Below, piece after piece: positions 4,607 through 32,952 of a stretch of 32,952 nucleotides of DNA (its first letter is position 1; every line of letters starts with the position of its first letter). Location of the stretch: the NCBI GenBank assembly GCA_030430875.1, contig JAUIKI010000001.1:1-32952 (forward strand), given 5' to 3'. Source of the DNA: Gammaproteobacteria bacterium (GTDB lineage: Bacteria; Pseudomonadota; Gammaproteobacteria; Pseudomonadales; JAUIKI01). The position numbers and the translations under genes were made by a program. A model generated the notes under the pieces. It did no database searches. It was given only the letters and a program-made list of their open reading frames with translations, and was not told the DNA's origin.

Positions 4607-5734
4607 TTATTTAATTTCGAGTGTAATCTCATCAGTTAAGAACTTATGTATATTCTCAAAAAAATAGACATAAAATGGAGCCATTTCTACATGCTTAAGT
4701 TGTGCATGATATTGATACGATTTTTCACCAAGTGTATCAACACAGCCATTGAATAATAAAACCTGTCTATCATGGATTTCGGTTTGATGAAAAATGCCAT
4801 ATCTATTCTTGTTAAATGGCGGTTTGTGGAAGAGTGTGAACCCATTTTTTGATGATGAGATCACCTTTATTTCATCGGTAAGGATATGCATGAAAGGCGA
4901 TATTGTATTTTGACCAAAAATTTCTTCTGCAAGCACAGTAGTTTGAGGGTTTGTCGGTAGCTTTTTAGCGCCATTCATAACAGCAGCTATTTTTTTCTGA
5001 TCAGTGGTGAGTGAAAATAAGCATTCCTCTTGATAGGTTTCAAAGTGATAGGTTTTGTTATCGTCTAAGTCATCAATAATTGCTTTCAGCTGATTAGTCG
5101 CCGAGAAAAGAACTTTTCTTTCGACATTAGACAGAGATTCCCAGTAATCATCCCAAGTAGGGGAGCTTGATGTTTTATCAGCCAGTAAATTTTTTGCCAT
5201 GCGAATTTTTTTGAGATTATGTTTGATCCGTTCAGTTTGATTGCTTTTAATGTCTTTATTAAAAGATTCCTCAGAGATATAAATTAAAAAACTTGTTTGT
5301 TCAGGTAAATATTTGAAATATATGGTATTTGTTTCTCTGAAACTATCTTCAAAAATCACACTATGGTCATCAAAGTAGACGATGTCATAGTCTGTAAGTT
5401 GGCTTTTAAGTCCTTCGATGGCGATTGCAGTGGGATCATCCGTTTGAATGAGTAAGATTTGTGACAGATTTCCATAAGGATGAATATGATTTTCTAGCTC
5501 GATGTTGAATAAAATATTGGGGTTGCCATAAAGTTCTAGTTTATCTAATTGATAGAAAAACATTCTGTCATCATAAGAAGCTTCATAGTGAAATGGCAAA
5601 TATAGTTCAAGATTAGTAACTGTGACCGGGTATGAAACCGTTGGTTTCGCAAAAAATGCGTCAAGCTCAGCTGGATCAAGTTTGACAGTATCAACTGGTT
5701 CATTGTTCACACGCATTTCAATGTTGTTCAGCAA
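4607..5734 (-). CDS. Hypothetical protein with no family I recognise; an orphan inserted between plsB and rsmJ
   Basis: This is a 375-aa uninterrupted ORF. The track start at 5734 is TTG, and an ATG (MRVNNEP...) lies at 5716. There is no signal peptide or TM segment. It is convergent with plsB, with only 6 bp between the two stop codons. Confidence 0.6.
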   Translation of the reverse strand: MLNNIEMRVNNEPVDTVKLDPAELDAFFAKPTVSYPVTVTNLELYLPFHYEASYDDRMFFYQLDKLELYGNPNILFNIELENHIHPYGNLSQILLIQTDDPTAIAIEGLKSQLTDYDIVYFDDHSVIFEDSFRETNTIYFKYLPEQTSFLIYISEESFNKDIKSNQTERIKHNLKKIRMAKNLLADKTSSSPTWDDYWESLSNVERKVLFSATNQLKAIIDDLDDNKTYHFETYQEECLFSLTTDQKKIAAVMNGAKKLPTNPQTTVLAEEIFGQNTISPFMHILTDEIKVISSSKNGFTLFHKPPFNKNRYGIFHQTEIHDRQVLLFNGCVDTLGEKSYQYHAQLKHVEMAPFYVYFFENIHKFLTDEITLEIK

Positions 5735-5992: not shown

Positions 5993-6055
5993 ATATTCCT
6001 GATAGTTGAGCAATATTCCTGAATTCCAGCAAAATATTCCTGAGTATTCTATTTG
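5993..6055 (+). promoter_or_regulatory. Three phased direct repeats of ATATTCCTGA plus a TATTCTATTTG box (putative transcription-factor operator array)
   Basis: The copies lie at 5993-6002, 6013-6022 and 6034-6043, spaced 20 and 21 bp apart, and the spacers are unrelated. The box is at 6045-6055. The same architecture occurs at 28160-28200. Confidence 0.5.
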
Positions 6056-6059
6056 GCTA

Positions 6060-6170
6060 TCATAGTAATTCGACGTATAGTAATGTCATCGAGGATGTGG
6101 CGACAATGTTGATAAAATCTTTGAGCAGTTCTCTCCCTTAGCCGTGCACTTAGGTGTGCGGCTTTTTATA
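6060..6170 (+). ncRNA. Candidate small RNA (orphan transcription unit; TSS not determinable from sequence)
   Basis: The + strand carries a strong intrinsic terminator at 6140-6168. No + strand ORF precedes it; the longest is a 9-codon ATG frame at 6083. Both flanking genes are on the minus strand. The repeat array and AT-rich -10-like hexamers (TATCAT at 6058, TAGTAAT at 6063) lie just upstream. Confidence 0.35.
6140..6168 (+). terminator. Rho-independent terminator, oriented on the + strand
   Basis: The stem is AGCCGTGCAC / GTGTGCGGCT, 10 bp including two G-U pairs, with a TTAG loop. It is followed by TTTTTATATTTT. The minus-strand reading lacks a U-tract. Confidence 0.7.
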
Positions 6171-6269
6171 TTTTCCCATTTGTGACATGTCATTTAACGA
6201 TCAGTTAACTACCAGTTTTCTGAGAAAATCTATTTGCTGTGTATCAATAGTTATCTCAAAAGTCTCTTG

Positions 6270-8402: not shown

Positions 8403-8948
8403 TTAGTAAGTTAATGTTTCGATGGTGTGATTTTGATTCGTGTAGATGCAGATATTGCCTGCAATGCCTAAGGATTTCTCCACAATAGATTTTGCATCTA
8501 ATTCGGTGTTTTCGATCAGAGCACGAGCAGCTGATTGAGCATAAGCGCCACCTGATCCAATAGCAATTAAGTTGTCTTCTGGTTCCACAACATCACCATT
8601 ACCAGTGATAATCAGAGAATTAACCTTGTCAGCCACTGCAAGTAGCGCTTCAAGACGTCGCAACATGCGATCAGTTCGCCAATCTTTAGCAAGTTCGACC
8701 GCAGCACGCAGTAAATTACCCTGGTGTTTTTCAAGTTGGGCCTCAAAGCGTTCAAATAGCGTGAACGCATCTGCTGTGCCGCCTGCAAATCCTGCTAAAA
8801 TTTTGTTTTGATAAAGTCGTCGGACTTTTTTGGCATTAGATTTCATGACGATGTGACCGAGTGTGACTTGTCCGTCACCGCCGATAACGACGGTATTATT
8901 GCGTCTGACTGAGACGATGGTAGTACCATCAAATTGGGGTAGGCTCAT
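8403..8948 (-). CDS. hslV: ATP-dependent protease subunit HslV
   Basis: The track ORF (to 9050) is over-extended. Homology starts at [18 protein letters not shown]..., with the ATG at 8948. The GDGQVTLG and [10 protein letters not shown] blocks are present. Eight residues precede the catalytic Thr. Confidence 0.93.
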
Positions 8949-9234
8949 AGTGATTTCATATTGAGTTAGATTGATGAATAGTATGTAATGAGATTCCTGT
9001 AGCAAAGTTATAACGATAAAAAATGGTTGAAAAGTGCCGGTCTTGTGCATTAGGTTGGCTATTTTTTCTGATTTTTTCTTTCACTGTCCTTTACTGCAAA
9101 TGTCTCAGTTTGATTACATTAGCTTTCAAGAAGTTCTGCATTTTATCGCTTATTTTTGCGGAAATTTTGATTTTTAAGTCAAAATTCACTAGAAATGGCG
9201 TAAATGGAAAATTATCAAGCTGATAAGCTGAAAG

Positions 9235-24991: not shown

Positions 24992-26590
24992 ATGACTATT
25001 TCAGACAAAAGTAATGTTTCTGATGCATTTAGTGCTTGGGGGAAGCTTTTGGGTGCCAAGTACGCTCGTAATTCTGAAGAAGCTATATCGGAATATTCTG
25101 CTTCATTAATTCCAGAATCAGCTTCGAATTGTGGTGTTGTGCTACCTAAAACATTTTCTGAACTTCAGGAAGTTCTTTCTATTGCAACCAAGAACAAGGT
25201 TTCTCTTTATCCAATAAGTTGTGGGAAAAATTGGGGTTATGGAGCTTCTTGTCCGGTGCAAGAGGGGAATGTGATTCTCGATTTGAGCCGAATGAATCAA
25301 ATTTTAGAATATGATGAAACTCTTGGTTATGTTGTTGTCGAGCCAGGCGTTACACCTGAACAGCTTTATAATTACCTTGAAGACCACGGTGGGAAATTTA
25401 TCATTGATACAATAGGTGGGCCTTCCGATTCTAGTTTGTTAGGTAATATTTTAGAGCGTGGTTACGGGCTTGGTAATTTAGGTGATCACTTCTTACATAG
25501 TTCTGGAATAGAGGCTTTGCTTGCAGATGGAACCCATTATTCTAGAGTTAATAAAGGGGGTGCGTCTTCTAAGTTTGCTAATATCTACAAATGGGGAGTA
25601 GGACCATATCTCGACGGCATTTTTACGCAGTCAAATTTTGGAGTTGTAACTAAACTGGCTATTTGGCTTGCAACTAAGCCTGAATCGTATGGGATAGTAA
25701 TAATAAAGGCTGAAGAGGAGCGTCAACTTTCGGGAATCATCGAGAGTATACGTGCTTTGAAACTAAATGGGGTGATACCACAGCTGCTTCATTTATATAA
25801 TGACGTCCGAATACTAAGTTCACTACAGCAATTCCCTAGTTCGCAAACGGATAAAAAACCTTTATCCGAAGAAGTCAAAGCCAAGCTTCGAAAGCGTCAC
25901 GGAATTTCATTGTGGAATGGAGTCACTGCTATATCAGGAACAAAACAAGAGGTGCGTCTACGCGCTAAAATGATTAAAAAATCCTTGCGAGGAAAAGCTC
26001 AAGTTCAATATGTTTCAGGAACTCTGATTGACTTTTTGATAAAACATACATGGTTGGTGAGGTTTATAGGGCTGAGTTCTGTTGCCACAAAAGTTAAAAG
26101 CCTGCAGATTTTTAAAGGAATTCCAAGTTACACAGGCATCAAATCAGTTTATTGGAGAAGTAAGAATCCACTGCCTGATATGAACGACAAGCCACAGCCG
26201 CAGTTTGATAATTGTGGAACCATATGGTGTTCACCTTTAACTCCAATGATAGCAAAGGACTGTTTTGAGGTGATCAGAATTACAAGAGATATATGTGAAT
26301 CACATGGATTTGAATTTAATACTGCAATGAACTTTATTTCTTCAAGAGCTATTAATTTTATTAATGCAATATCATTTGACAAAAGTAATGCTTTGGAAAC
26401 TCAAAATGCGTTGAATTGTTATAATGAGCTCAATGAGATATTGCTCAAGAAGGGATATGTATCATACCGATCCAGCACAATTGGAATGCAGTACGTAATT
26501 GACGACAGCCCGTACTGGGATGTTTGCAAGAAAATTAAAATAGCTCTTGATCCTAATGGCATAATAGCGCCTGGTCGATATGAAAAGTGA
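24992..26590 (+). CDS. FAD-linked oxidase (PCMH / vanillyl-alcohol-oxidase-like fold)
   Basis: The 532-aa ORF has an N-terminal FAD_binding_4-like region: LYPISCGKNWGYGAS...VILDLSRMNQILEYDETLGYVVVEPGVT..QLY.YL. Its size is typical of VAO / 4-cresol dehydrogenase-type enzymes. The substrate is unknown. Confidence 0.7.
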   Translation: MTISDKSNVSDAFSAWGKLLGAKYARNSEEAISEYSASLIPESASNCGVVLPKTFSELQEVLSIATKNKVSLYPISCGKNWGYGASCPVQEGNVILDLSRMNQILEYDETLGYVVVEPGVTPEQLYNYLEDHGGKFIIDTIGGPSDSSLLGNILERGYGLGNLGDHFLHSSGIEALLADGTHYSRVNKGGASSKFANIYKWGVGPYLDGIFTQSNFGVVTKLAIWLATKPESYGIVIIKAEEERQLSGIIESIRALKLNGVIPQLLHLYNDVRILSSLQQFPSSQTDKKPLSEEVKAKLRKRHGISLWNGVTAISGTKQEVRLRAKMIKKSLRGKAQVQYVSGTLIDFLIKHTWLVRFIGLSSVATKVKSLQIFKGIPSYTGIKSVYWRSKNPLPDMNDKPQPQFDNCGTIWCSPLTPMIAKDCFEVIRITRDICESHGFEFNTAMNFISSRAINFINAISFDKSNALETQNALNCYNELNEILLKKGYVSYRSSTIGMQYVIDDSPYWDVCKKIKIALDPNGIIAPGRYEK

Positions 26591-26702
26591 TTCAGATCCG
26601 CTGTAAGTTAAGGAGTTGATCATTAATCTAGACTTTAAATTGATCGTTCAAAGATACGGTGAAAATGCAGTTAATAATAGACTTGTGGTTCGGGCCTTTG
26701 CA

Positions 26703-27389
26703 CTAAAAACTTGCCCTACGAGAGACATGAGAATTATGAAAACTCATTGCGGAGATCAACAAACCACCCAAAGAAAATAATTGCACTCCAACCCAGACTA
26801 ACCAATGATTGACTGTGCGTTTCACTTGTTTAGTTTCAAGCAATTCAAATTTCCGGGTTTCACCATCTTGGAACTTTTCAGTTTTAATCCCCAAATTTTC
26901 GTAGCTGACAAAAAAAGTTCCATCTCCATTACCACCATAGATATTTAGCGCATTATCTCTATTGTCACTAAAATAAACATAGGCTGTTTCTGGGAAAAAA
27001 ATATTAAATTGCCCAATAGCTATGCATAAAACACCTGAAAACATTAATGCGACTAACAGCAATAAATATTGCTTCTTTTTATGTGTTTGATTTTTTTTCA
27101 GATCAAACGCACCATAATTCTCAATGGCGATGTGCTTGAAATATTTGCGAATGATCAGAGGGTCTAAACCGACTAATAGCTCAGTTCGATTAAGTTTAAA
27201 AACAGCTGCAATTCGATCAAAAACTTCAACCGATGGAATGGCTTTATCTTTTTCCAATTTAGAGAGATAAGAGGCATCGATTTTAAGACTCTCAGCAAGC
27301 TCTGCTTGGGTATATTGTTTATCAAGACGCAGCGTTCTGAGTTTTTCTCCGAAACTAATAAATGTACTTTGATTGACGACTGATAACAT
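26703..27389 (-). CDS. Membrane-anchored XRE-family HTH regulator (HTH, TM, roughly 65-aa extracytoplasmic segment, TM)
   Basis: The 228-aa ORF has the HTH FGEKLRTLRLDKQYTQAELAESLKIDASYLSKLEKDKAIPSVEVFDRIAAVF. Hydrophobic spans are YLLLLVALMFSGVLCIAIGQF and HWLVWVGVQLFSLGGLLISAMSF. It starts 3 nt after its paralog. Confidence 0.75.
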   Translation of the reverse strand: MLSVVNQSTFISFGEKLRTLRLDKQYTQAELAESLKIDASYLSKLEKDKAIPSVEVFDRIAAVFKLNRTELLVGLDPLIIRKYFKHIAIENYGAFDLKKNQTHKKKQYLLLLVALMFSGVLCIAIGQFNIFFPETAYVYFSDNRDNALNIYGGNGDGTFFVSYENLGIKTEKFQDGETRKFELLETKQVKRTVNHWLVWVGVQLFSLGGLLISAMSFHNSHVSRRASF

Positions 27390-27392
27390 ATT

Positions 27393-28064
27393 TTATTCCT
27401 CAGCCCCGATCAAAGAATCCTTGCCATCAATTCGGTATATAACTTTCACATAGCAAAAATACCCTATTCCCATCAACATCAATATGCCTCCCATCAATAT
27501 TAGCCAAGGATGGTGACTTTGCTCATATTTTTCCAACAAAAAGAACTCTTTAAAGTCTGCTGTTTTTTTCTCAAGAATTTCTCCGGCGTAATAATCCAGC
27601 TCAATTGTTTCTCCAGTGGATGCAAAACCATATCTAGGCTCCTCATATTTTTCCAACCATTGCTTGGTATAAAAACGTGGACCAGACTGGAGGTAGTGGT
27701 AATGCTGAGTTGGCAGCAACACTCCGCCACTCAAAAGCGCTAAACCGATCCATATCGACACAAGCGCTACCCAAGACCTATGCAGTTTTTGCGCGAGTTT
27801 CTTTAATTGTCGTTCTTTTGCGGAAATACCGATATTGCCAAAATTTTCAGATAAAAAATTTGTATCTACTCCTTCAATCAGCTCCATTAAGCTAATGTTA
27901 TAAATAGTGGCTAATTTTTCTAATATATCAATCGTTGGAATAGCACGATTATTTTCTAGTTTGGATAAGTATGACTGCTCAATATCGCTGTGAAGCGCCA
28001 ATTCTTTTTGAGTCCACTGTGTTGTTGCTCTTAAGGCGCGTAATCTTTCACCTAATTTCATCAT
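27393..28064 (-). CDS. Membrane-anchored XRE-family HTH regulator, paralog of the downstream gene
   Basis: The HTH reads LGERLRALRATTQWTQKELALHSDIEQSYLSKLENNRAIPTIDILEKLATIY. Hydrophobic spans are WVALVSIWIGLALLSGGVLLP and WLILMGGILMLMGIGYFCYV. The track start at 28073 is TTG, and ATGs lie at 28064 and 28061. Confidence 0.75.
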   Translation of the reverse strand: MMKLGERLRALRATTQWTQKELALHSDIEQSYLSKLENNRAIPTIDILEKLATIYNISLMELIEGVDTNFLSENFGNIGISAKERQLKKLAQKLHRSWVALVSIWIGLALLSGGVLLPTQHYHYLQSGPRFYTKQWLEKYEEPRYGFASTGETIELDYYAGEILEKKTADFKEFFLLEKYEQSHHPWLILMGGILMLMGIGYFCYVKVIYRIDGKDSLIGAEE

Positions 28065-28159
28065 GATCAGCAATATTTTTAATGTTAAAAACGCAGTATA
28101 GCGAGTTTCTTTTCTTTCTCAACTCCTTTTAAGTGATTGATAGTTAAGGAAAGGCAGCG

Positions 28160-28200
28160 ATATTCCTCAATAGGCATGATCATTCCTCATATTCTATTTG
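28160..28200 (+). promoter_or_regulatory. Two phased ATTCCTCA repeats plus a TATTCTATTTG box in the divergent XRE / secreted-cluster promoter region
   Basis: ATATTCCTCA is at 28160-28169 and TCATTCCTCA at 28180-28189, 20 bp apart. The identical 11-mer TATTCTATTTG follows at 28190-28200. The layout matches 5993-6055. Confidence 0.45.
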
Positions 28201-28295
28201 TGTTTCTTTGCCACAAACTGAAAATAGGCCACACAGCTTGCAGGACAACTTCAACTTGCAGCTGTATCAACAAATCAACCTAACCGGAGACAGTT

Positions 28296-28763
28296 ATGAA
28301 ACTAAAACACTTGATTGCAATATTAAGTATCACATTAACCACACCACTGGCTGCAAATGAAGTCGTTAAAACAGGAGTGGCCATCCCATTAGATTACACC
28401 GCGCTTTATCTTGTTGATAAAACATTGGCAGATTCAAAAGCTGGTGAAATTGATAAAAAACCTTATTTTGTCAAGTTAGTAGGCCTGAAACCAGGTGAAC
28501 AATATGGCAAGAATGAATCACAACTTTGGGAAGCATTGACTGATTTAGTTCAACTGGGTAGTGGCAACTCAGCAGAAGCAAGCTGTCAGATAGTTAGTAG
28601 TTTATTTCATCATGATGATTATGCTCGTGCAGCTATTTGTTCAATCGATGGTAAAGATCTTGGTGAGCAATTAATTGCAACTGGGTTTTATTCAGTGAAT
28701 CGTGATGAGACTTATGCCAAGGGAATGGATATTGCATTGGCTAAACGAAAAACAAGCGCGTGA
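28296..28763 (+). CDS. Exported staphylococcal-nuclease-like (SNase/thermonuclease fold) protein with a probable 3' frameshift
   Basis: The signal peptide is MKLKHLIAILSITLTTPLAA|NE. SNase-like blocks are LVDKTL..., YFVKLVGLKPGEQYGK and DDYARAAICSIDGKDLGEQLIATGF. The family-typical tail EKQAREKKLGIWS is encoded in a different frame at 28747-28827. Confidence 0.5.
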   Translation: MKLKHLIAILSITLTTPLAANEVVKTGVAIPLDYTALYLVDKTLADSKAGEIDKKPYFVKLVGLKPGEQYGKNESQLWEALTDLVQLGSGNSAEASCQIVSSLFHHDDYARAAICSIDGKDLGEQLIATGFYSVNRDETYAKGMDIALAKRKTSA

Positions 28764-28909
28764 GAAAAAGCTGGGGATTTGGAGTAACGTAGAAGCACCA
28801 TCATCAAGTGGTGTCATTAATCAATGACGACACGCTCTGAGATCTTTGCGCTAAAGACTCAACGATAAAAAATGGTTAAGACATTGATTTTTAATAAGGG
28901 AGAAAACAC

Positions 28910-29410
28910 ATGAAATCAATTGCTCGTTATACCCTGATCAATTTACTGCTGATGATCATGACAACCGTTGTCAATGCGGAAACTGATGCCAATTCTGGTA
29001 TTCCAAACTTGGAACCTGTCGCACTCGTTGCAACGCTTTACACTCAATCCCAAAAGACAGATAACGCGATGTTTTTTGATGAAAATGGTCTTGAGTTGCT
29101 CAAACAATATTTCACTGAAAATCTTGCAGAATTAGTCATTGCAGATCTGAAAGCAACTCAACCAGGAGATTCTGGTCGTTTAGGTTTTGATCCTTTATAT
29201 GCTGCCCAAGATTTTGAAGTAACGAATTTTGCATTGCGATTAGACGCTGTTGAAAACAGTCAGGCAAAAGTCATTGCAACTATTAAGAATTTTGGAGAGA
29301 CAGTGGAAGTAATCTTTTCATTACAACAGCGTGTAGGCCAATGGCGCATTGTAAACATTGAATATCATGAACATGAAGATTTGCTGACAATTCTCACACA
29401 AAGTAAATGA
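28910..29410 (+). CDS. Exported protein, DUF3828/YbjP-like (NTF2-like); family assignment is tentative
   Basis: The signal peptide is MKSIARYTLINLLLMIMTTVVNA|ETD. The motif GFDPLYAAQDFEV...VGQWRIVNIEY resembles my memory of DUF3828. There is a strong SD, GGGAG. Confidence 0.5.
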   Translation: MKSIARYTLINLLLMIMTTVVNAETDANSGIPNLEPVALVATLYTQSQKTDNAMFFDENGLELLKQYFTENLAELVIADLKATQPGDSGRLGFDPLYAAQDFEVTNFALRLDAVENSQAKVIATIKNFGETVEVIFSLQQRVGQWRIVNIEYHEHEDLLTILTQSK

Positions 29411-29479
29411 AACTATTTCATCATATAAATCACGGTCTATTACGGTAATTTATATTTAGAAAACTCACAGGAAAACCAA

Positions 29480-29866
29480 ATGAAAAAATTATTAGCCCTA
29501 TTGTTTATTAGCCCGCTAGGTGTCCCAATAGCATGGTGTCTTTATATGCTTATATCTAGTGGAAGTTTAAAAATTTCTGACATAAGTCTAATTTTTGCAG
29601 GTTATTTAAGTGGATTAATTGGTGCAACAACTCTTGGTGTTCCATTCTATTTTGCTCTCAAGAACTACCATAAAGAACAATCTCTTTGGCTGGTTTTATT
29701 AGGATTCTTGAGTGGCTTTTTAATGGCATTTCCAATGGTGGAGGTTGGTGGACTTGAATTTATTAATTTGACATTGATGGGGGGGGTTTCAGGGTTTACA
29801 GTGGCATTAATCGCTTGGGTTTTAATAAACGTACTTAAGATAAATAAGCCGAGACCTTTGTGCTAA
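29480..29866 (+). CDS. Small integral membrane protein with about 4 TM segments, hypothetical
   Basis: The 128-aa ORF is almost entirely hydrophobic helices. It contains the G8 tract. Confidence 0.6.
   Translation: MKKLLALLFISPLGVPIAWCLYMLISSGSLKISDISLIFAGYLSGLIGATTLGVPFYFALKNYHKEQSLWLVLLGFLSGFLMAFPMVEVGGLEFINLTLMGGVSGFTVALIAWVLINVLKINKPRPLC
29779..29786 (+). repeat. Homopolymeric G8 tract inside a coding sequence
   Basis: I read it directly as ttgatGGGGGGGGtttc, encoding M-G-G-V. It is the only long G/C run I saw in this AT-rich window. Confidence 0.9.
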
Positions 29867-30015
29867 AAATCAATGCAAGAAAAATGAGGAAAAAACTTCA
29901 GATTGAGGCGAAAAATTCAGGTAATAACGAGCTATTAACCATTTTTTATCGTTGTAGTTTTAGTGCAAAAGTCTCAGATTATTATTTCAAATTAAAACAT
30001 TCAAAGGAGCAGATA

Positions 30016-31773
30016 ATGAAACAATATTTACGAGCAATTTCAATCTTCACATTTTTACTGACGTCAGGAGCAGTATTTGCTGAAACGATAATAGTTGACA
30101 CTACGAAAGATAAATTTTCGGATTCTAAAACTGCACAATACAACTGCTTATTAGGCGAATTAAGCCCCGACTGCTCTTTACGTGAAGCTGTGCAGACAGC
30201 CAATGACCTTCCAGGAGATGACACAATCATTTTGGGTGAAGGCACTTATAAACTGACCTTGCATGGCATGGATGAAGAATACAACAAAACAGGTGATTTA
30301 GATATTAAAGACACCCTTACAATCACCGGTATTGCAGCAGAAAAAACATTCATTGATGGTGACCTTGCAGACCGAATTTTTCACCATCATAAAGGTAACT
30401 TAACTTTAAATAAGTTAACACTGATAAACGGGATAATCGTATATTCAAAAACGTTGAATACCTTTGGTACTGGAGGTGCAGCAATACTCAGTAATTTAGT
30501 GGGTAAATTAAGTATCAATCAAGTGATAGTACGAAACAATACAACTGAGTTTACAGATGAAATCTATTGCCAAATCGAAGGCATTCCATTTGAACCAAGC
30601 ATTGGAGAAGGCAATACCATTTTTTATCACGGCAACGATCTTTCCCTCACAGGATCAGCTATTATAAACAATCAATTTACCTGTTTAGGTGAACCTGCCA
30701 ATCATTTCATCTTTGGTAAAGGCTATGCTCTCTTTGCAAAAACAGATAAATTAAGGTTAGAAAATGTCTTGATTGCTAATAATGTAACTGAAGAAAGTGC
30801 TGAAAACAGGCATGCAACTGTACTGCTTGACTGTTATGGACAATCAACCTGTCAACATACTATCGATAAAGTCACTATGAGCCACAATGGTGAGCTAAAT
30901 ATCATGTTTGATTTCAATTTTGAAGAACTTAATGATGTATCGATTAATATTAACGAACTCAAATCTTCTATGGGTAGGGTATTAATCGATGCAATCAACT
31001 TTTCTGAGAATGGTGAACATAACATTGATCTCGTCATTAAAAATAGTTCATTTGAAAATTCGGAGCTCTACGGATTACAATATCAATCTTATGAAAGATA
31101 TGATGATAGCGAGCAAAAAAGTCTGATCATCGTCAATGCATCAATTGAACATTCTACATTCGCCAAAAATGGTATTGGAGTTAAATTATTTAAAAATATA
31201 GAAGATCAAAATTTTTGGTTGCTACGCAATAATACCATTAGTGGAAATACACAAGGTGGTATTGATGTAGGTGGCTTCAATGCATTGGATTTGACTTATA
31301 ACACCATTGCCTTTAATGGTGATCCAAGTAAGGATATAGATGGCGTTAATATTTTTTATGGTAGTTCGGTAACAAATGTCAATCTACTAGGCAATATTAT
31401 CAGCAATCCACAAGGTGGAAAAAGCTGTGCTGGACATACTTACCAAATGTATTCACAAACATACAATCTAGATAGCGATGGAAGTTGTTTATTCTATCAT
31501 CCAGCAGAAGGTGACATAATCGGCTTTGATCCATTATTAAAGTCACTTGCTCATAACGGCGGAAAAACTAAAACTCACGCTTTGAAAATAGGCAGTCCTG
31601 CCATTGATGCCGCTAAGGTTACTGAAAAGGATACTGGCACGGTGTTTGATCAGCGTTATGTTTCGAGAACAGGCAATGGTGTTGGCAATAATCCTGACAT
31701 AGGGTCTTTTGAACTATTTACTCCACCATCTTTGTCTTGCGATATTATCACCTGTGGTGGGCCGGAAAACTAA
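30016..31773 (+). CDS. Secreted right-handed parallel beta-helix protein with an N-terminal CSLREA motif
   Basis: The track start at 29860 (GTG) is over-extended. The ATG at 30016 follows AAGGAG and gives the signal peptide MKQYLRAISIFTFLLTSGAVFA|ETI. A literal CSLREAVQTANDLPGDDTIILGEGTY is present, followed by many N/G/I-rich beta-helix-like repeats. The C-terminus reads FDQRYVSR...NPDIGSFE. Confidence 0.75.
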   Translation: MKQYLRAISIFTFLLTSGAVFAETIIVDTTKDKFSDSKTAQYNCLLGELSPDCSLREAVQTANDLPGDDTIILGEGTYKLTLHGMDEEYNKTGDLDIKDTLTITGIAAEKTFIDGDLADRIFHHHKGNLTLNKLTLINGIIVYSKTLNTFGTGGAAILSNLVGKLSINQVIVRNNTTEFTDEIYCQIEGIPFEPSIGEGNTIFYHGNDLSLTGSAIINNQFTCLGEPANHFIFGKGYALFAKTDKLRLENVLIANNVTEESAENRHATVLLDCYGQSTCQHTIDKVTMSHNGELNIMFDFNFEELNDVSININELKSSMGRVLIDAINFSENGEHNIDLVIKNSSFENSELYGLQYQSYERYDDSEQKSLIIVNASIEHSTFAKNGIGVKLFKNIEDQNFWLLRNNTISGNTQGGIDVGGFNALDLTYNTIAFNGDPSKDIDGVNIFYGSSVTNVNLLGNIISNPQGGKSCAGHTYQMYSQTYNLDSDGSCLFYHPAEGDIIGFDPLLKSLAHNGGKTKTHALKIGSPAIDAAKVTEKDTGTVFDQRYVSRTGNGVGNNPDIGSFELFTPPSLSCDIITCGGPEN

Positions 31774-31841
31774 TCGCAGATTTTATTAACCACTTGAGGC
31801 CATTGGCTTTTGATGCAATGGTCTCACAGTGGACCGACAAT

Positions 31842-32234
31842 TTAGATAATGCCCTTTTTTATATTGCGCACTGTGAATATAGTCACAATAACACGACCTA
31901 GCTCTAGAATAGCAGCAATAAATATCAGTGCTTGATAGGCTGCCATGTCTCCAAAAAACAAATAATTTATCTTAGTAATGAAACCAAAAGTTAATAAAAA
32001 AAACATTAGCCTAAAAGGAAACTGAAAATATACAAGATAATAAGACCATCGTTTTCCAAGTAGAAGTCCAATGCCTGAAATGAACAAACTGATGACCGTA
32101 ATGGCAGTTAATATGGATAAAACTCCTTCAAGAGGCATATTGAAAGAGATATTTGTTATATGCGTGTAAAATCTTACAGCTAGAATAATATCTAAGAGGC
32201 CAAATAGTTTTTGTATTTTTAAATAGTTATGCAT
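31842..32234 (-). CDS. Small integral membrane protein, hypothetical
   Basis: The ORF has about 4 hydrophobic helices. The track start at 32246 is TTG, and an ATG lies at 32234 (MHNYLK...). Confidence 0.5.
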   Translation of the reverse strand: MHNYLKIQKLFGLLDIILAVRFYTHITNISFNMPLEGVLSILTAITVISLFISGIGLLLGKRWSYYLVYFQFPFRLMFFLLTFGFITKINYLFFGDMAAYQALIFIAAILELGRVIVTIFTVRNIKKGII

Positions 32235-32321
32235 GTTTTTTCTCAACGAGATAACGTTCTATATCACTGGGTCAAGAAGTGTTAGTGTGCTGAGTTCAGT
32301 GATGATATTGTTAGCCAACAA

Positions 32322-32762
32322 TTATCGATACTCTAAACTAATAATTTCTTCTAACCCTGCAATGTGTATTTGAGGGTTATGTTTAACTCGGACTTCCTTT
32401 GTGCCTAATGGTAATTGTTTGTTAAGAGCTATAGACGTATTGCTAAATAATAAAGAAAGCCAGTTTGTTTCATTTGTAGAATTACAAAGTCTCCAAATAA
32501 CAACATTTATTTTTTCATCATTTTCTTTTTCCAAAGTAGTTGACTTAAGCGTAACTTGTTCTTCTGGAGACCCACTGAACAAGGTTATTCCTGAGAGCAA
32601 ATTTGATTGTTTCGTATCTGACGCTTGCCATCCATCAGGGATAGAGAGCTTTTCTTGCTTAGTATTAATGTCAGATGGCAAAGTCAATTCTTTCCATTTG
32701 TCACTCGCTTGTAATGATATCGGTAAGATTAAAAATAAGATTAATAGGCTTTTAAATTTCAT
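32322..32762 (-). CDS. Exported hypothetical protein
   Basis: The 146-aa ORF has the signal peptide MKFKSLLILFLILPISLQA|SDK. I recognise no family. Confidence 0.55.
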   Translation of the reverse strand: MKFKSLLILFLILPISLQASDKWKELTLPSDINTKQEKLSIPDGWQASDTKQSNLLSGITLFSGSPEEQVTLKSTTLEKENDEKINVVIWRLCNSTNETNWLSLLFSNTSIALNKQLPLGTKEVRVKHNPQIHIAGLEEIISLEYR

Positions 32763-32780
32763 AGTTATTTCCTAGTTATT

Positions 32781-32805
32781 AAAAAAGTATGCTTTTAAAA
32801 GCACT
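32781..32805 (-). terminator. Weak palindromic hairpin plus T6 after the upstream partial gene
   Basis: The palindrome TGCTTTTAAAAGCA lies at 32790-32803. On the minus strand it is followed by ACTTTTTT. The stem is short and AT-rich. Confidence 0.3.
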
Positions 32806-32865
32806 TGTCTATGCGATTGCTAAGCTGCTATTTTTATCGTTTCTTTTCTATTATTCAAGATAAAC

Positions 32866-32952
32866 TTACTGCAATATGATTCCAAACAAGGTGTTATCCC
32901 ATTTCTCTCGGGCTTCACCTTCAAAATAGAAATAGCCGTCTTCGCCAAGGAT
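32866..32952 (-). CDS. 3' end of an unidentified gene that enters from beyond the window
   Basis: The minus-strand frame is open from the window edge and reads ILGEDGYFYFEGEAREKWDNTLFGIILQ*, with the stop at 32868-32866. It is too short to identify. Confidence 0.3.
   Translation of the reverse strand: MLGEDGYFYFEGEAREKWDNTLFGIILQ

Follow-up and report, generated by a model that had tools for sequence, protein, structure and literature searches.

A tandem, fast-evolving pair of predicted membrane-tethered XRE regulators from an unstudied family, and a TATTC operator proposed for the family

Positions 1 to 32,952 of the forward strand of contig JAUIKI010000001.1 (GenBank assembly GCA_030430875.1, Gammaproteobacteria bacterium), a stretch of 32,952 nt referred to below as the window, hold two adjacent genes for proteins that each begin with a helix-turn-helix (HTH) of the XRE type and appear to be anchored in the membrane. 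The locus raises the question of why such a regulator should be present twice in succession, whether the two proteins act together or apart, and which DNA they read. As judged from sequence comparison, what is new here would be a tandem and fast-evolving pair from an unstudied family of transmembrane transcription regulators (TTRs), together with an operator proposed for the family as a whole.

Both paralogues match the Pfam families HTH_19, HTH_3 and HTH_31 above the gathering scores (E 3e-13 to 1e-11; 45-50 bits against cut-offs of 23-30), which places them in the XRE / Cro-C1 superfamily. Compared with one another by BLASTP, they share 31% identity over 134 aa (E 4e-19), their loops being weakly similar past the first transmembrane (TM) helix, TM1. 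Kyte-Doolittle hydropathy gives exactly two hydrophobic segments per protein, these being residues 98-116 and 187-205 in the upstream protein and 108-126 and 197-215 in the downstream protein, with means of 1.9-2.5 for the hydrophobic 19-mers. Each protein also has five K/R within the 15 residues N-terminal to TM1, an acidic loop of 70 aa and a tail of 13-17 aa. The basic stretch ahead of TM1, taken with the positive-inside rule, predicts a topology with the N-terminus in, the loop out and the C-terminus in. A previous reading of the locus, made from the sequence only, had given each protein an HTH, a basic linker, TM1, a loop, TM2 and a short tail and had taken the two to be membrane-tethered one-component regulators; the Pfam matches and the hydropathy agree with this layout, the HTH and two TMs support the regulator interpretation, and the topology predicted from the positive-inside rule puts the HTH in the cytoplasm. 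The block that it saw shared by the two proteins just before TM2, F.LLE...W (FFLLEKYEQSHHPW and FELLETKQVKRTVNHW), is present in both and corresponds to the conserved 'G.R.Y.L' strand of the family described below.

In AlphaFold2 models built with family alignments (predicted local distance difference test score, pLDDT, of 83 for the full-length protein and of 85 for the C-terminal module), the HTH leads into one long helix that comprises the linker and TM1; a small sheet of four strands, accompanied by a short helix, comes next, and then the TM2 helix. The HTH fold superposes on the HTH domains of DdrO, SinR, 434 Cro and C.AhdI at 0.8-1.8 Å. Foldseek matches of the full-length model in the PDB are confined to the HTH, and the TM-beta-TM model alone found nothing significant there (best E 0.93, probability 0.2). 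Likewise, the C-terminal alignment profile gave nothing under E 0.03 against PDB sequences, and no Pfam, NCBIfam or PDB entry covering the TM-beta-TM module was found in searches of these collections.

On sequence comparison, both paralogues are very divergent members of a large, unnamed and uncharacterised family with the layout HTH-TM-beta-TM. The upstream protein, used as query, brought up about 50 proteins with lengths of 220-255 residues, Kangiella and Thalassotalea being among their sources; their alignments cover 88-94% of the query, and they are annotated simply as "helix-turn-helix transcriptional regulator". With hmmsearch, the family profile matches the upstream protein at 5.4e-61 (positions 1-236) and the downstream protein at 5e-62 (positions 1-234); this profile was built from a 16-row alignment that includes both window proteins, and the homologues with 88-94% coverage provide the independent support. 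The signature of the 16-sequence alignment consists of an HTH with the helix IEQSYLSKLE, a juxtamembrane 'HIPEVA' motif, TM1, Y.Y.S.G, a variable beta domain (Y.G..F, G.R.Y.L) and TM2.

The peptide pattern IEQSYLSKL, scanned against a single genome for each prokaryotic species, led to 453 confirmed family loci, and an exhaustive profile search of 1.8 billion representatives at 50% identity gave 252 clusters at E<1e-30, mainly full-length at 225-280 aa. The family is found in marine and saline Gammaproteobacteria (Kangiella, Colwellia, Thalassotalea, Marinicella, Cellvibrionaceae, Pseudohongiella, Rheinheimera, Aliikangiella) and in Alphaproteobacteria (Maricaulis, Oceanicaulis, Kordiimonadales, Erythrobacter). 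The two-TM layout is kept by 80 of 82 members of the locus set and by 120 of 132 representatives; the median loop is 96-97 residues, and the window proteins, with 70, have shorter loops than all others of the locus set and than most of the representatives. The sequence-only reading was aware of no description of a paired two-TM version divergent to an exported-protein cluster. The layout itself turns out to belong to a large annotated family, and it is the tandem pairing that is special to this locus. That reading had also held that membership of a well-characterised family with an unrelated function would speak against it; the family found is an uncharacterised one.

The family gene stands alone at 80 other loci; only L052 among them has a second copy, lying 2.8 kb off and non-adjacent, which makes the tandem order a peculiarity of this uncultured gammaproteobacterium. 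All-against-all clustering of open reading frames (ORFs) up to 3.5 kb from 80 family genes revealed no family-wide partner or target. Synteny is lineage-specific only, with SapC/DUF416 in Colwelliaceae and proBA/isc in Kangiella. None of the neighbour genes in the window recurs beside other family genes, and no exported-protein cluster lies next to normal members.

Some genomes do carry two family copies, and this may be a recurrent state. One Psychrobium metagenome-assembled genome has two unlinked paralogues of different clades (L049 and L054), Colwellia loci also fall in two clades, and the copies of L052 lie at 4968-5684 and 8464-9210; in such two-copy genomes each copy has its own TATTC array, of the kind described below. 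Split or truncated family genes, in which two ORFs match consecutive parts of the profile or a match is partial, are seen at L053 (4926-5872), L083 (1055-1921) and L043 (5136-5630), and a TATTC array is still found upstream of them.

The recognition helix is close to invariant across the family. Among 132 representatives, chosen by a hidden Markov model search without the peptide word index, the residues E, Q, S, S, K and E of IEQSYLSKLE are each found in 130-132, so that the DNA they read should be conserved as well. De novo counts of k-mers, taken over the 250 nt ahead of 80 family genes and in control segments, brought out ATATTCATCT in 33 of the 80 upstream regions and no controls, CAGGAATA (the complement of TATTCCTG) in 32 regions and two controls, and ATTCTTGG in 22 regions and no controls. 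At least three TATTC/GAATA pentamers are present in 68 of the 80 family upstream regions, compared with 1.9% of 3534 background 200-nt windows from the same loci, the mean numbers being 3.7 and 0.46, respectively. The half-site has the consensus aTATTC(A/C/T)T(c/g), with adjacent copies mainly in direct orientation at a spacing of 10, 12, 20 or 22 bp; at 21-23 bp downstream there is a copy in inverted orientation, and GAATATTC palindromes are common. In both proteobacterial classes the arrays lie about 50-130 nt ahead of the family start codons. A total of 78 tight TATTC clusters were located in the window and about 800 kb of loci, 67 at the starts of family genes and 4 at truncated family genes; 6 others lie inside long ORFs and look like chance, and the last is intergenic, namely site A of the window (5994-6049).

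It is quite likely, from the co-occurrence of array and gene and the invariance of both helix and half-site, that the family protein binds the TATTC arrays and regulates its own gene, autoregulation being implied by the position of the arrays over the promoter region of the family gene itself. A metagenome scan for ATATTCCTGA-N10/11-ATATTCCTGA gave 95 matches, most of which are satellite-like arrays or repeats that code for DIPE/DIPD, and none of which is an informative orphan operator. Three marine metagenome contigs (L123, L154 and L164) were seen to carry long tandem arrays of a unit of about 20 nt, GAATATTCCTGAATATTTTG, with 8-18 TATTC pentamers; no family gene is visible on these short contigs.

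The two genes of the window (Table 1) lie as near to one another as the sequence-only reading had described, both ORFs being found where it placed them: the upstream stop codon TAA (27393-27395) is followed by 'aat' and then by the downstream ATG at 27389, a gap of 3 nt. This gap, with a Shine-Dalgarno (SD) sequence for the downstream gene inside the end of the upstream gene, suggests from the sequence that the two are co-transcribed as one operon, possibly with coupled translation. As start of the upstream gene the ATG is favoured over the TTG, since MKLGERLR fits the family consensus M.LGEKLR and agrees with the gene call of the protein collection.

Table 1. Features of the window discussed in the text, with positions counted from its first nucleotide
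Feature	Position	Strand	Remarks
Upstream paralogue (P0001)	27393..28073	-	ORF of 226 aa from TTG 28073; likely start ATG 28061, 222 aa
Upstream paralogue, HTH	~27864-28052	-	
Upstream paralogue, TM1	27714-27770	-	
Upstream paralogue, periplasmic loop	27504-27713	-	
Upstream paralogue, TM2	27447-27503	-	
Downstream paralogue (P0053)	26703..27389	-	228 aa
Downstream paralogue, HTH	~27171-27350	-	
Downstream paralogue, TM1	27012-27068	-	
Downstream paralogue, loop	26802-27011	-	
Downstream paralogue, TM2	26745-26801	-	
SD of downstream gene	27397..27402	-	GAGGAA, within end of upstream gene, 7 nt ahead of downstream ATG; read from sequence
Best sigma-70-like promoter match for the pair	28095..28122	-	TTGAGA-16-TATACT, 10/12; prediction
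Site B	28161..28200	+	ATATTCCTCA at 28161, cATTCCTCA at 28181, TATTCTATTTG at 28190; family-type half-site array
Site A	5994..6055	+	ATATTCCTGA at 5994, 6014 and 6035 (spacing 20 and 21 bp), then TATTCTATTTG
Divergent exported/membrane cluster	28296..31773	+	Four proteins; putative target
Candidate small RNA	6057..6172	+	Stretch of ~110 nt that follows site A; two hairpins (z about -2), unpaired UCUCCCUUA

The window has two arrays of the family type. Site B is situated in the 222-bp divergent intergenic region, 100-140 nt upstream of ATG 28061 and at roughly -70 to -110 relative to the predicted promoter of the pair; of its three half-sites, one departs from the motif (cATTC). Site A is flanked by two minus-strand genes; every other intergenic TATTC cluster, in the window and the loci together, is beside a family gene. 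The pattern ATTCCTSA-N11-13-ATTCCTSA occurs three times in the window, at sites A and B, and in none of 100 shuffles. Positions 28160-28200 and 5993-6055 had already been proposed as operators from the window sequence, and the comparison across genomes supports them, such arrays standing upstream of 68 of 80 family genes and being nearly absent otherwise.

At site B, the divergent cluster which is the putative target encodes a 155-aa signal-peptide protein, a DUF3828 protein, a 128-aa multi-TM protein and a 637-aa protein. The last of these (ORF 29860-31773, + strand) has an N-terminal CSLREA domain and a C-terminal choice-of-anchor-Q domain; GTG 29860 overlaps the gene preceding it, and the real start is probably the internal ATG that opens MKQYLRAISIFTFLL, a signal peptide. 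Past the stop codon of the 155-aa protein (28763), another frame of 28747-28830 (+) reads EKKLGIWSNVE; the ORF as called has no SNase match in Pfam.

At site A, the segment that follows may plausibly be transcribed as a small RNA (sRNA), to judge from its predicted features. It has a strong intrinsic terminator at 6140-6163 followed by a T-run and holds no + strand ORF of at least 20 aa; Rfam gave no family match anywhere in the window, this segment included. Its unpaired CU-rich UCUCCCUUA (6132-6140) is the exact complement of TAAGGGAGA (28895-28903, + strand), the ribosome-binding site (RBS) of the DUF3828 gene (ATG 28910). This 9-mer is found at only these two places in the window, on the - strand at 6132-6140 and on the + strand at 28895-28903, and none of 100 shuffles reaches two matches. 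Pairing of the candidate sRNA with the DUF3828 RBS is taken as a lead only, anti-SD seeds being poorly specific.

The predicted direction of control depends on which promoter is used. Should the TATTCT after the last repeat serve as the -10 element, the bound protein would cover the core promoter and repress; the slot held by TATGAT in Colwelliaceae promoters is taken by TATTCT in several lineages. If the promoter at site A is instead the downstream match TTGGCT-17-TATAGT, the array would be in an activator position. There is a slight preference for repression by promoter occlusion over activation.

The two window proteins have diverged far from the remainder of the family. Their branches measure 2.76 and 1.82 substitutions per site against a median of 0.25, and their closest relatives among 5.8 billion proteins are 37% (upstream) and 34% (downstream) identical. 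The paralogues do not group in the free tree, and a tree in which they are forced together is not rejected (approximately unbiased test, p-AU 0.17); the pair may thus have arisen either by duplication in place and fast divergence or by the bringing together of two older clades. At positions conserved in at least 90% of 130 unbiased representatives, the upstream protein retains 15 of 17 in the HTH, with the whole recognition helix, and 2 of 6 in the membrane/loop module, while the downstream protein retains 13 of 17 (E38D and Q39A being among the changes) and 4 of 6. The conserved periplasmic residues are Y, S, E, G and R, and other members keep 7-9 of 9 at the 80% level; several of the positions lost in the window proteins are 95-100% conserved. 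The upstream protein keeps IEQSYLSKLE exactly and the downstream helix reads IDASYLSKLE, in which Q39A is unique among the 132 representatives and the E-to-D change is seen in 2 of them. Such modest complementary loss of residues is the pattern that would be expected from subfunctionalisation within a mixed oligomer. The sequence-only reading had taken the pairing to suggest a heteromeric sensor-regulator, an idea that this loss and the signs of co-transcription favour indirectly.

The explanation which best accounts for these observations, and to which a probability of roughly 60% is given, is that one operon encodes two fast-diverging paralogues of an unstudied TTR family. Each would have its XRE HTH in the cytoplasm, tethered through a basic linker to TM1, a small beta-sheet periplasmic domain and TM2, and the IEQSYLSKLE helix would read TATTC(C/A/T)T half-sites in phased arrays (10/12/20/22-bp spacing, some inverted). 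From the membrane, and on an envelope or periplasmic cue, the pair would control two units, the exported cluster at site B and the candidate sRNA at site A. The upstream protein would contribute a canonical DNA-reading head and the downstream protein a changed head with more of the loop residues retained, the two working as a mixed oligomer with partial division of labour. The last element is held tentatively: a mixed oligomer is the likeliest single arrangement on the residue pattern, at somewhat below even odds.

Several points weigh against this explanation. The association of array and gene ties the array to the family promoter rather than to a given binding protein, and palindromes are the usual targets of XRE dimers, whereas direct repeats prevail in these arrays. 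The array at site B is directed toward the + strand cluster and not toward the pair, unlike the co-oriented arrays of other genomes. The pattern of complementary loss rests on few residues, and the long branches and shortest loops could mean relaxed selection. Homo-oligomers would be the default state, since the family gene is a singleton elsewhere. No RNA runs contain the stretch, and the organism is known from metagenomes.

It is somewhat unlikely that the two paralogues are independent regulators, each forming its own homo-oligomer and answering a different periplasmic cue, with both or only the upstream protein binding TATTC and the tandem order a relic of duplication. The single genes in some 80 other genomes would fit such an arrangement, as would the loops that are weakly similar past TM1 and the unlinked copies of different clades elsewhere (L049/L054; also L052), from which two copies need not be partners. 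However, the 3-nt gap and internal SD enforce co-expression, the Q39A change in the downstream protein fits poorly with an independent canonical DNA reader, and the divergence of both proteins is accelerated and partly complementary.

Going further than the mixed oligomer, the pair could be an obligate hetero-oligomer produced by subfunctionalisation, in which one subunit keeps the DNA head and the other the periplasmic sensing residues. It would then form part of a membrane feed-forward circuit, one TATTCC operator governing both the exported operon and a trans-acting sRNA whose CU-rich seed pairs with the RBS of the second gene, and the family would constitute a pathway of envelope signalling that has gone unrecognised, in which marine Gamma- and Alphaproteobacteria share one operator code. 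Taken whole, this is unlikely.

It is improbable that the downstream copy, or both copies, is decaying or does not bind DNA, whether as a titrating modulator of the upstream regulator or as a gene nearing loss. The long branches, the shortest loops of the locus set, the lost conserved positions and the split or truncated family genes elsewhere (L053, L083 and L043) would all be in keeping with decay. Nevertheless, neither ORF is interrupted or shortened, each protein has two clean TMs, the HTH scores lie well over the Pfam thresholds, the downstream gene has a good SD, and most of the HTH core residues are retained (13/17 and 15/17).

More improbable still is that the arrays are bound by another factor, or are membrane-tethering or centromere-like iterons, with the family serving as a DNA-membrane tether like RodZ rather than as regulators: the link between array and family is one of co-occurrence, phased direct repeats by the gene of the binder also typify partition sites such as parC/ParR, and the family is without a defined regulon, but helix and half-site are both invariant in two proteobacterial classes, as is typical of a protein and its cognate DNA, the arrays occupy promoter territory 50-130 nt upstream of start codons, and those of the window precede transcription units.

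The stretch was found in two DNA metagenome runs only, one of them labelled biofloc. The host is an uncultured gammaproteobacterium of marine type; its HslU is at most 82% identical to any known protein, with 75-78% identity to those of Aestuariirhabdus, Endozoicomonas and Zooshikella, and the window is ordinary chromosome, with plsB, rsmJ, hslUV, rph, bcp and a malic enzyme gene. The guanine plus cytosine (GC) content is 0.35-0.38 at 26000-32952 and 0.40-0.43 over most of the remaining window; the regulator pair and the exported cluster fall in this low-GC part, as do several small orphan proteins that are secreted or in the membrane, and it may be an accessory region, either acquired or under less constraint. 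A mobile element was considered and rejected, the Pfam-scanned genes being core genes and no tRNA being present in the window; integrases were not searched for, and the GC content is lower at 26-32 kb.

Transmembrane one-component regulators are abundant and very few have been characterised, and the HTH-TM-beta-TM proteins form one such "dark" family, present in hundreds of marine proteobacterial species. For this family the comparative analysis supplies a proposed operator, made up of phased TATTC(C/A/T)T half-sites, and an invariant reading helix, which make binding, topology and regulon testable in cultured Kangiella, Colwellia, Thalassotalea and Maricaulis. The tandem pair provides a natural experiment in the divergence of a membrane regulator after duplication. 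The pair is also a possible XRE membrane heteromer, with a putative link from a membrane regulator to an sRNA.

A survey of 2023 predicted 50,302 TTRs, defined by a predicted DNA-binding domain and at least one predicted TM region in one polypeptide, with HTH as the commonest DNA-binding type and about 57% without any other recognisable domain (PMC10269533). Both window paralogues fall under this definition with an HTH and two TMs; about 25 TTRs are characterised in the survey, none of them from the HTH-TM-beta-TM family (PMC10269533). Membrane regulators paired with a partner include ToxR-ToxS, TcpP-TcpH and VtrA-VtrC (PMC10269533). As is proposed for the window pair, ToxR, TcpP, CadC and VtrA are anchored in the membrane with a periplasmic sensor; they are activators, some having an adjacent partner gene and envelope or exported targets. 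They differ in their OmpR-type winged helix, single TM and partner that does not bind DNA, whereas the window proteins are of the XRE type with two TMs and an HTH in both. Membership of the ToxR/CadC-like group was rejected, as only XRE-type HTH families were matched and no Trans_reg_C. Regulators of defence and toxin-antitoxin systems (CapH, C-proteins, HipB) were rejected also, the PADLOC and NCBIfam matches covering only the HTH of about 60 aa at scores under the family cut-offs, and no defence-family matches were found among the neighbours of the pair.

RodZ shares with the window pair an N-terminal XRE-type HTH, a basic juxtamembrane linker and a TM, and it is conserved as a single chromosomal gene. 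It has one TM and a C-terminal DUF4115 and is a cytoskeletal protein associated with MreB, whereas the window proteins have two TMs and no DUF4115 match; membership was rejected, the NCBIfam model rodZ_Strepcoccus scoring 20.5 and 15.1 bits against a cut-off of 375 and over the HTH and linker. BcrR of Enterococcus faecalis, the XRE-type example among TTRs, is alike in being a one-component protein with a cytoplasmic N-terminal XRE-type HTH fused to membrane segments. Reportedly, it has four TM helices in its C-terminal part, lacks a large extracytoplasmic domain and controls a bacitracin ABC transporter (bcrABD-type). By contrast, the window pair has two TMs around a beta domain (70-100 aa in the family) and no transporter neighbour, with similarity limited to the HTH. 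A BcrR-type assignment was rejected on the two TMs and on the neighbours, which encode exported proteins and a flavin adenine dinucleotide (FAD) oxidase rather than an ABC transporter.

The closest solved HTH is that of DdrO from Deinococcus, with 42-44% identity over 66 residues and a root-mean-square deviation of 0.9-1.0 Å; DdrO is a soluble repressor controlled by cleavage, and its likeness to the window pair is restricted to the HTH domain. SinR and SlrR of Bacillus subtilis, whose structure 3zkc is among the HTH fold matches, are XRE paralogues which form a heteromer with altered DNA targeting, and the half-sites of SinR are both direct and inverted. They are thus a precedent for a heteromer of XRE paralogues and also for the reading of direct repeats, differing in that they are soluble and cytoplasmic, with a C-terminal helical oligomerisation hook and a different operator, whereas the window pair is predicted to be anchored in the membrane.

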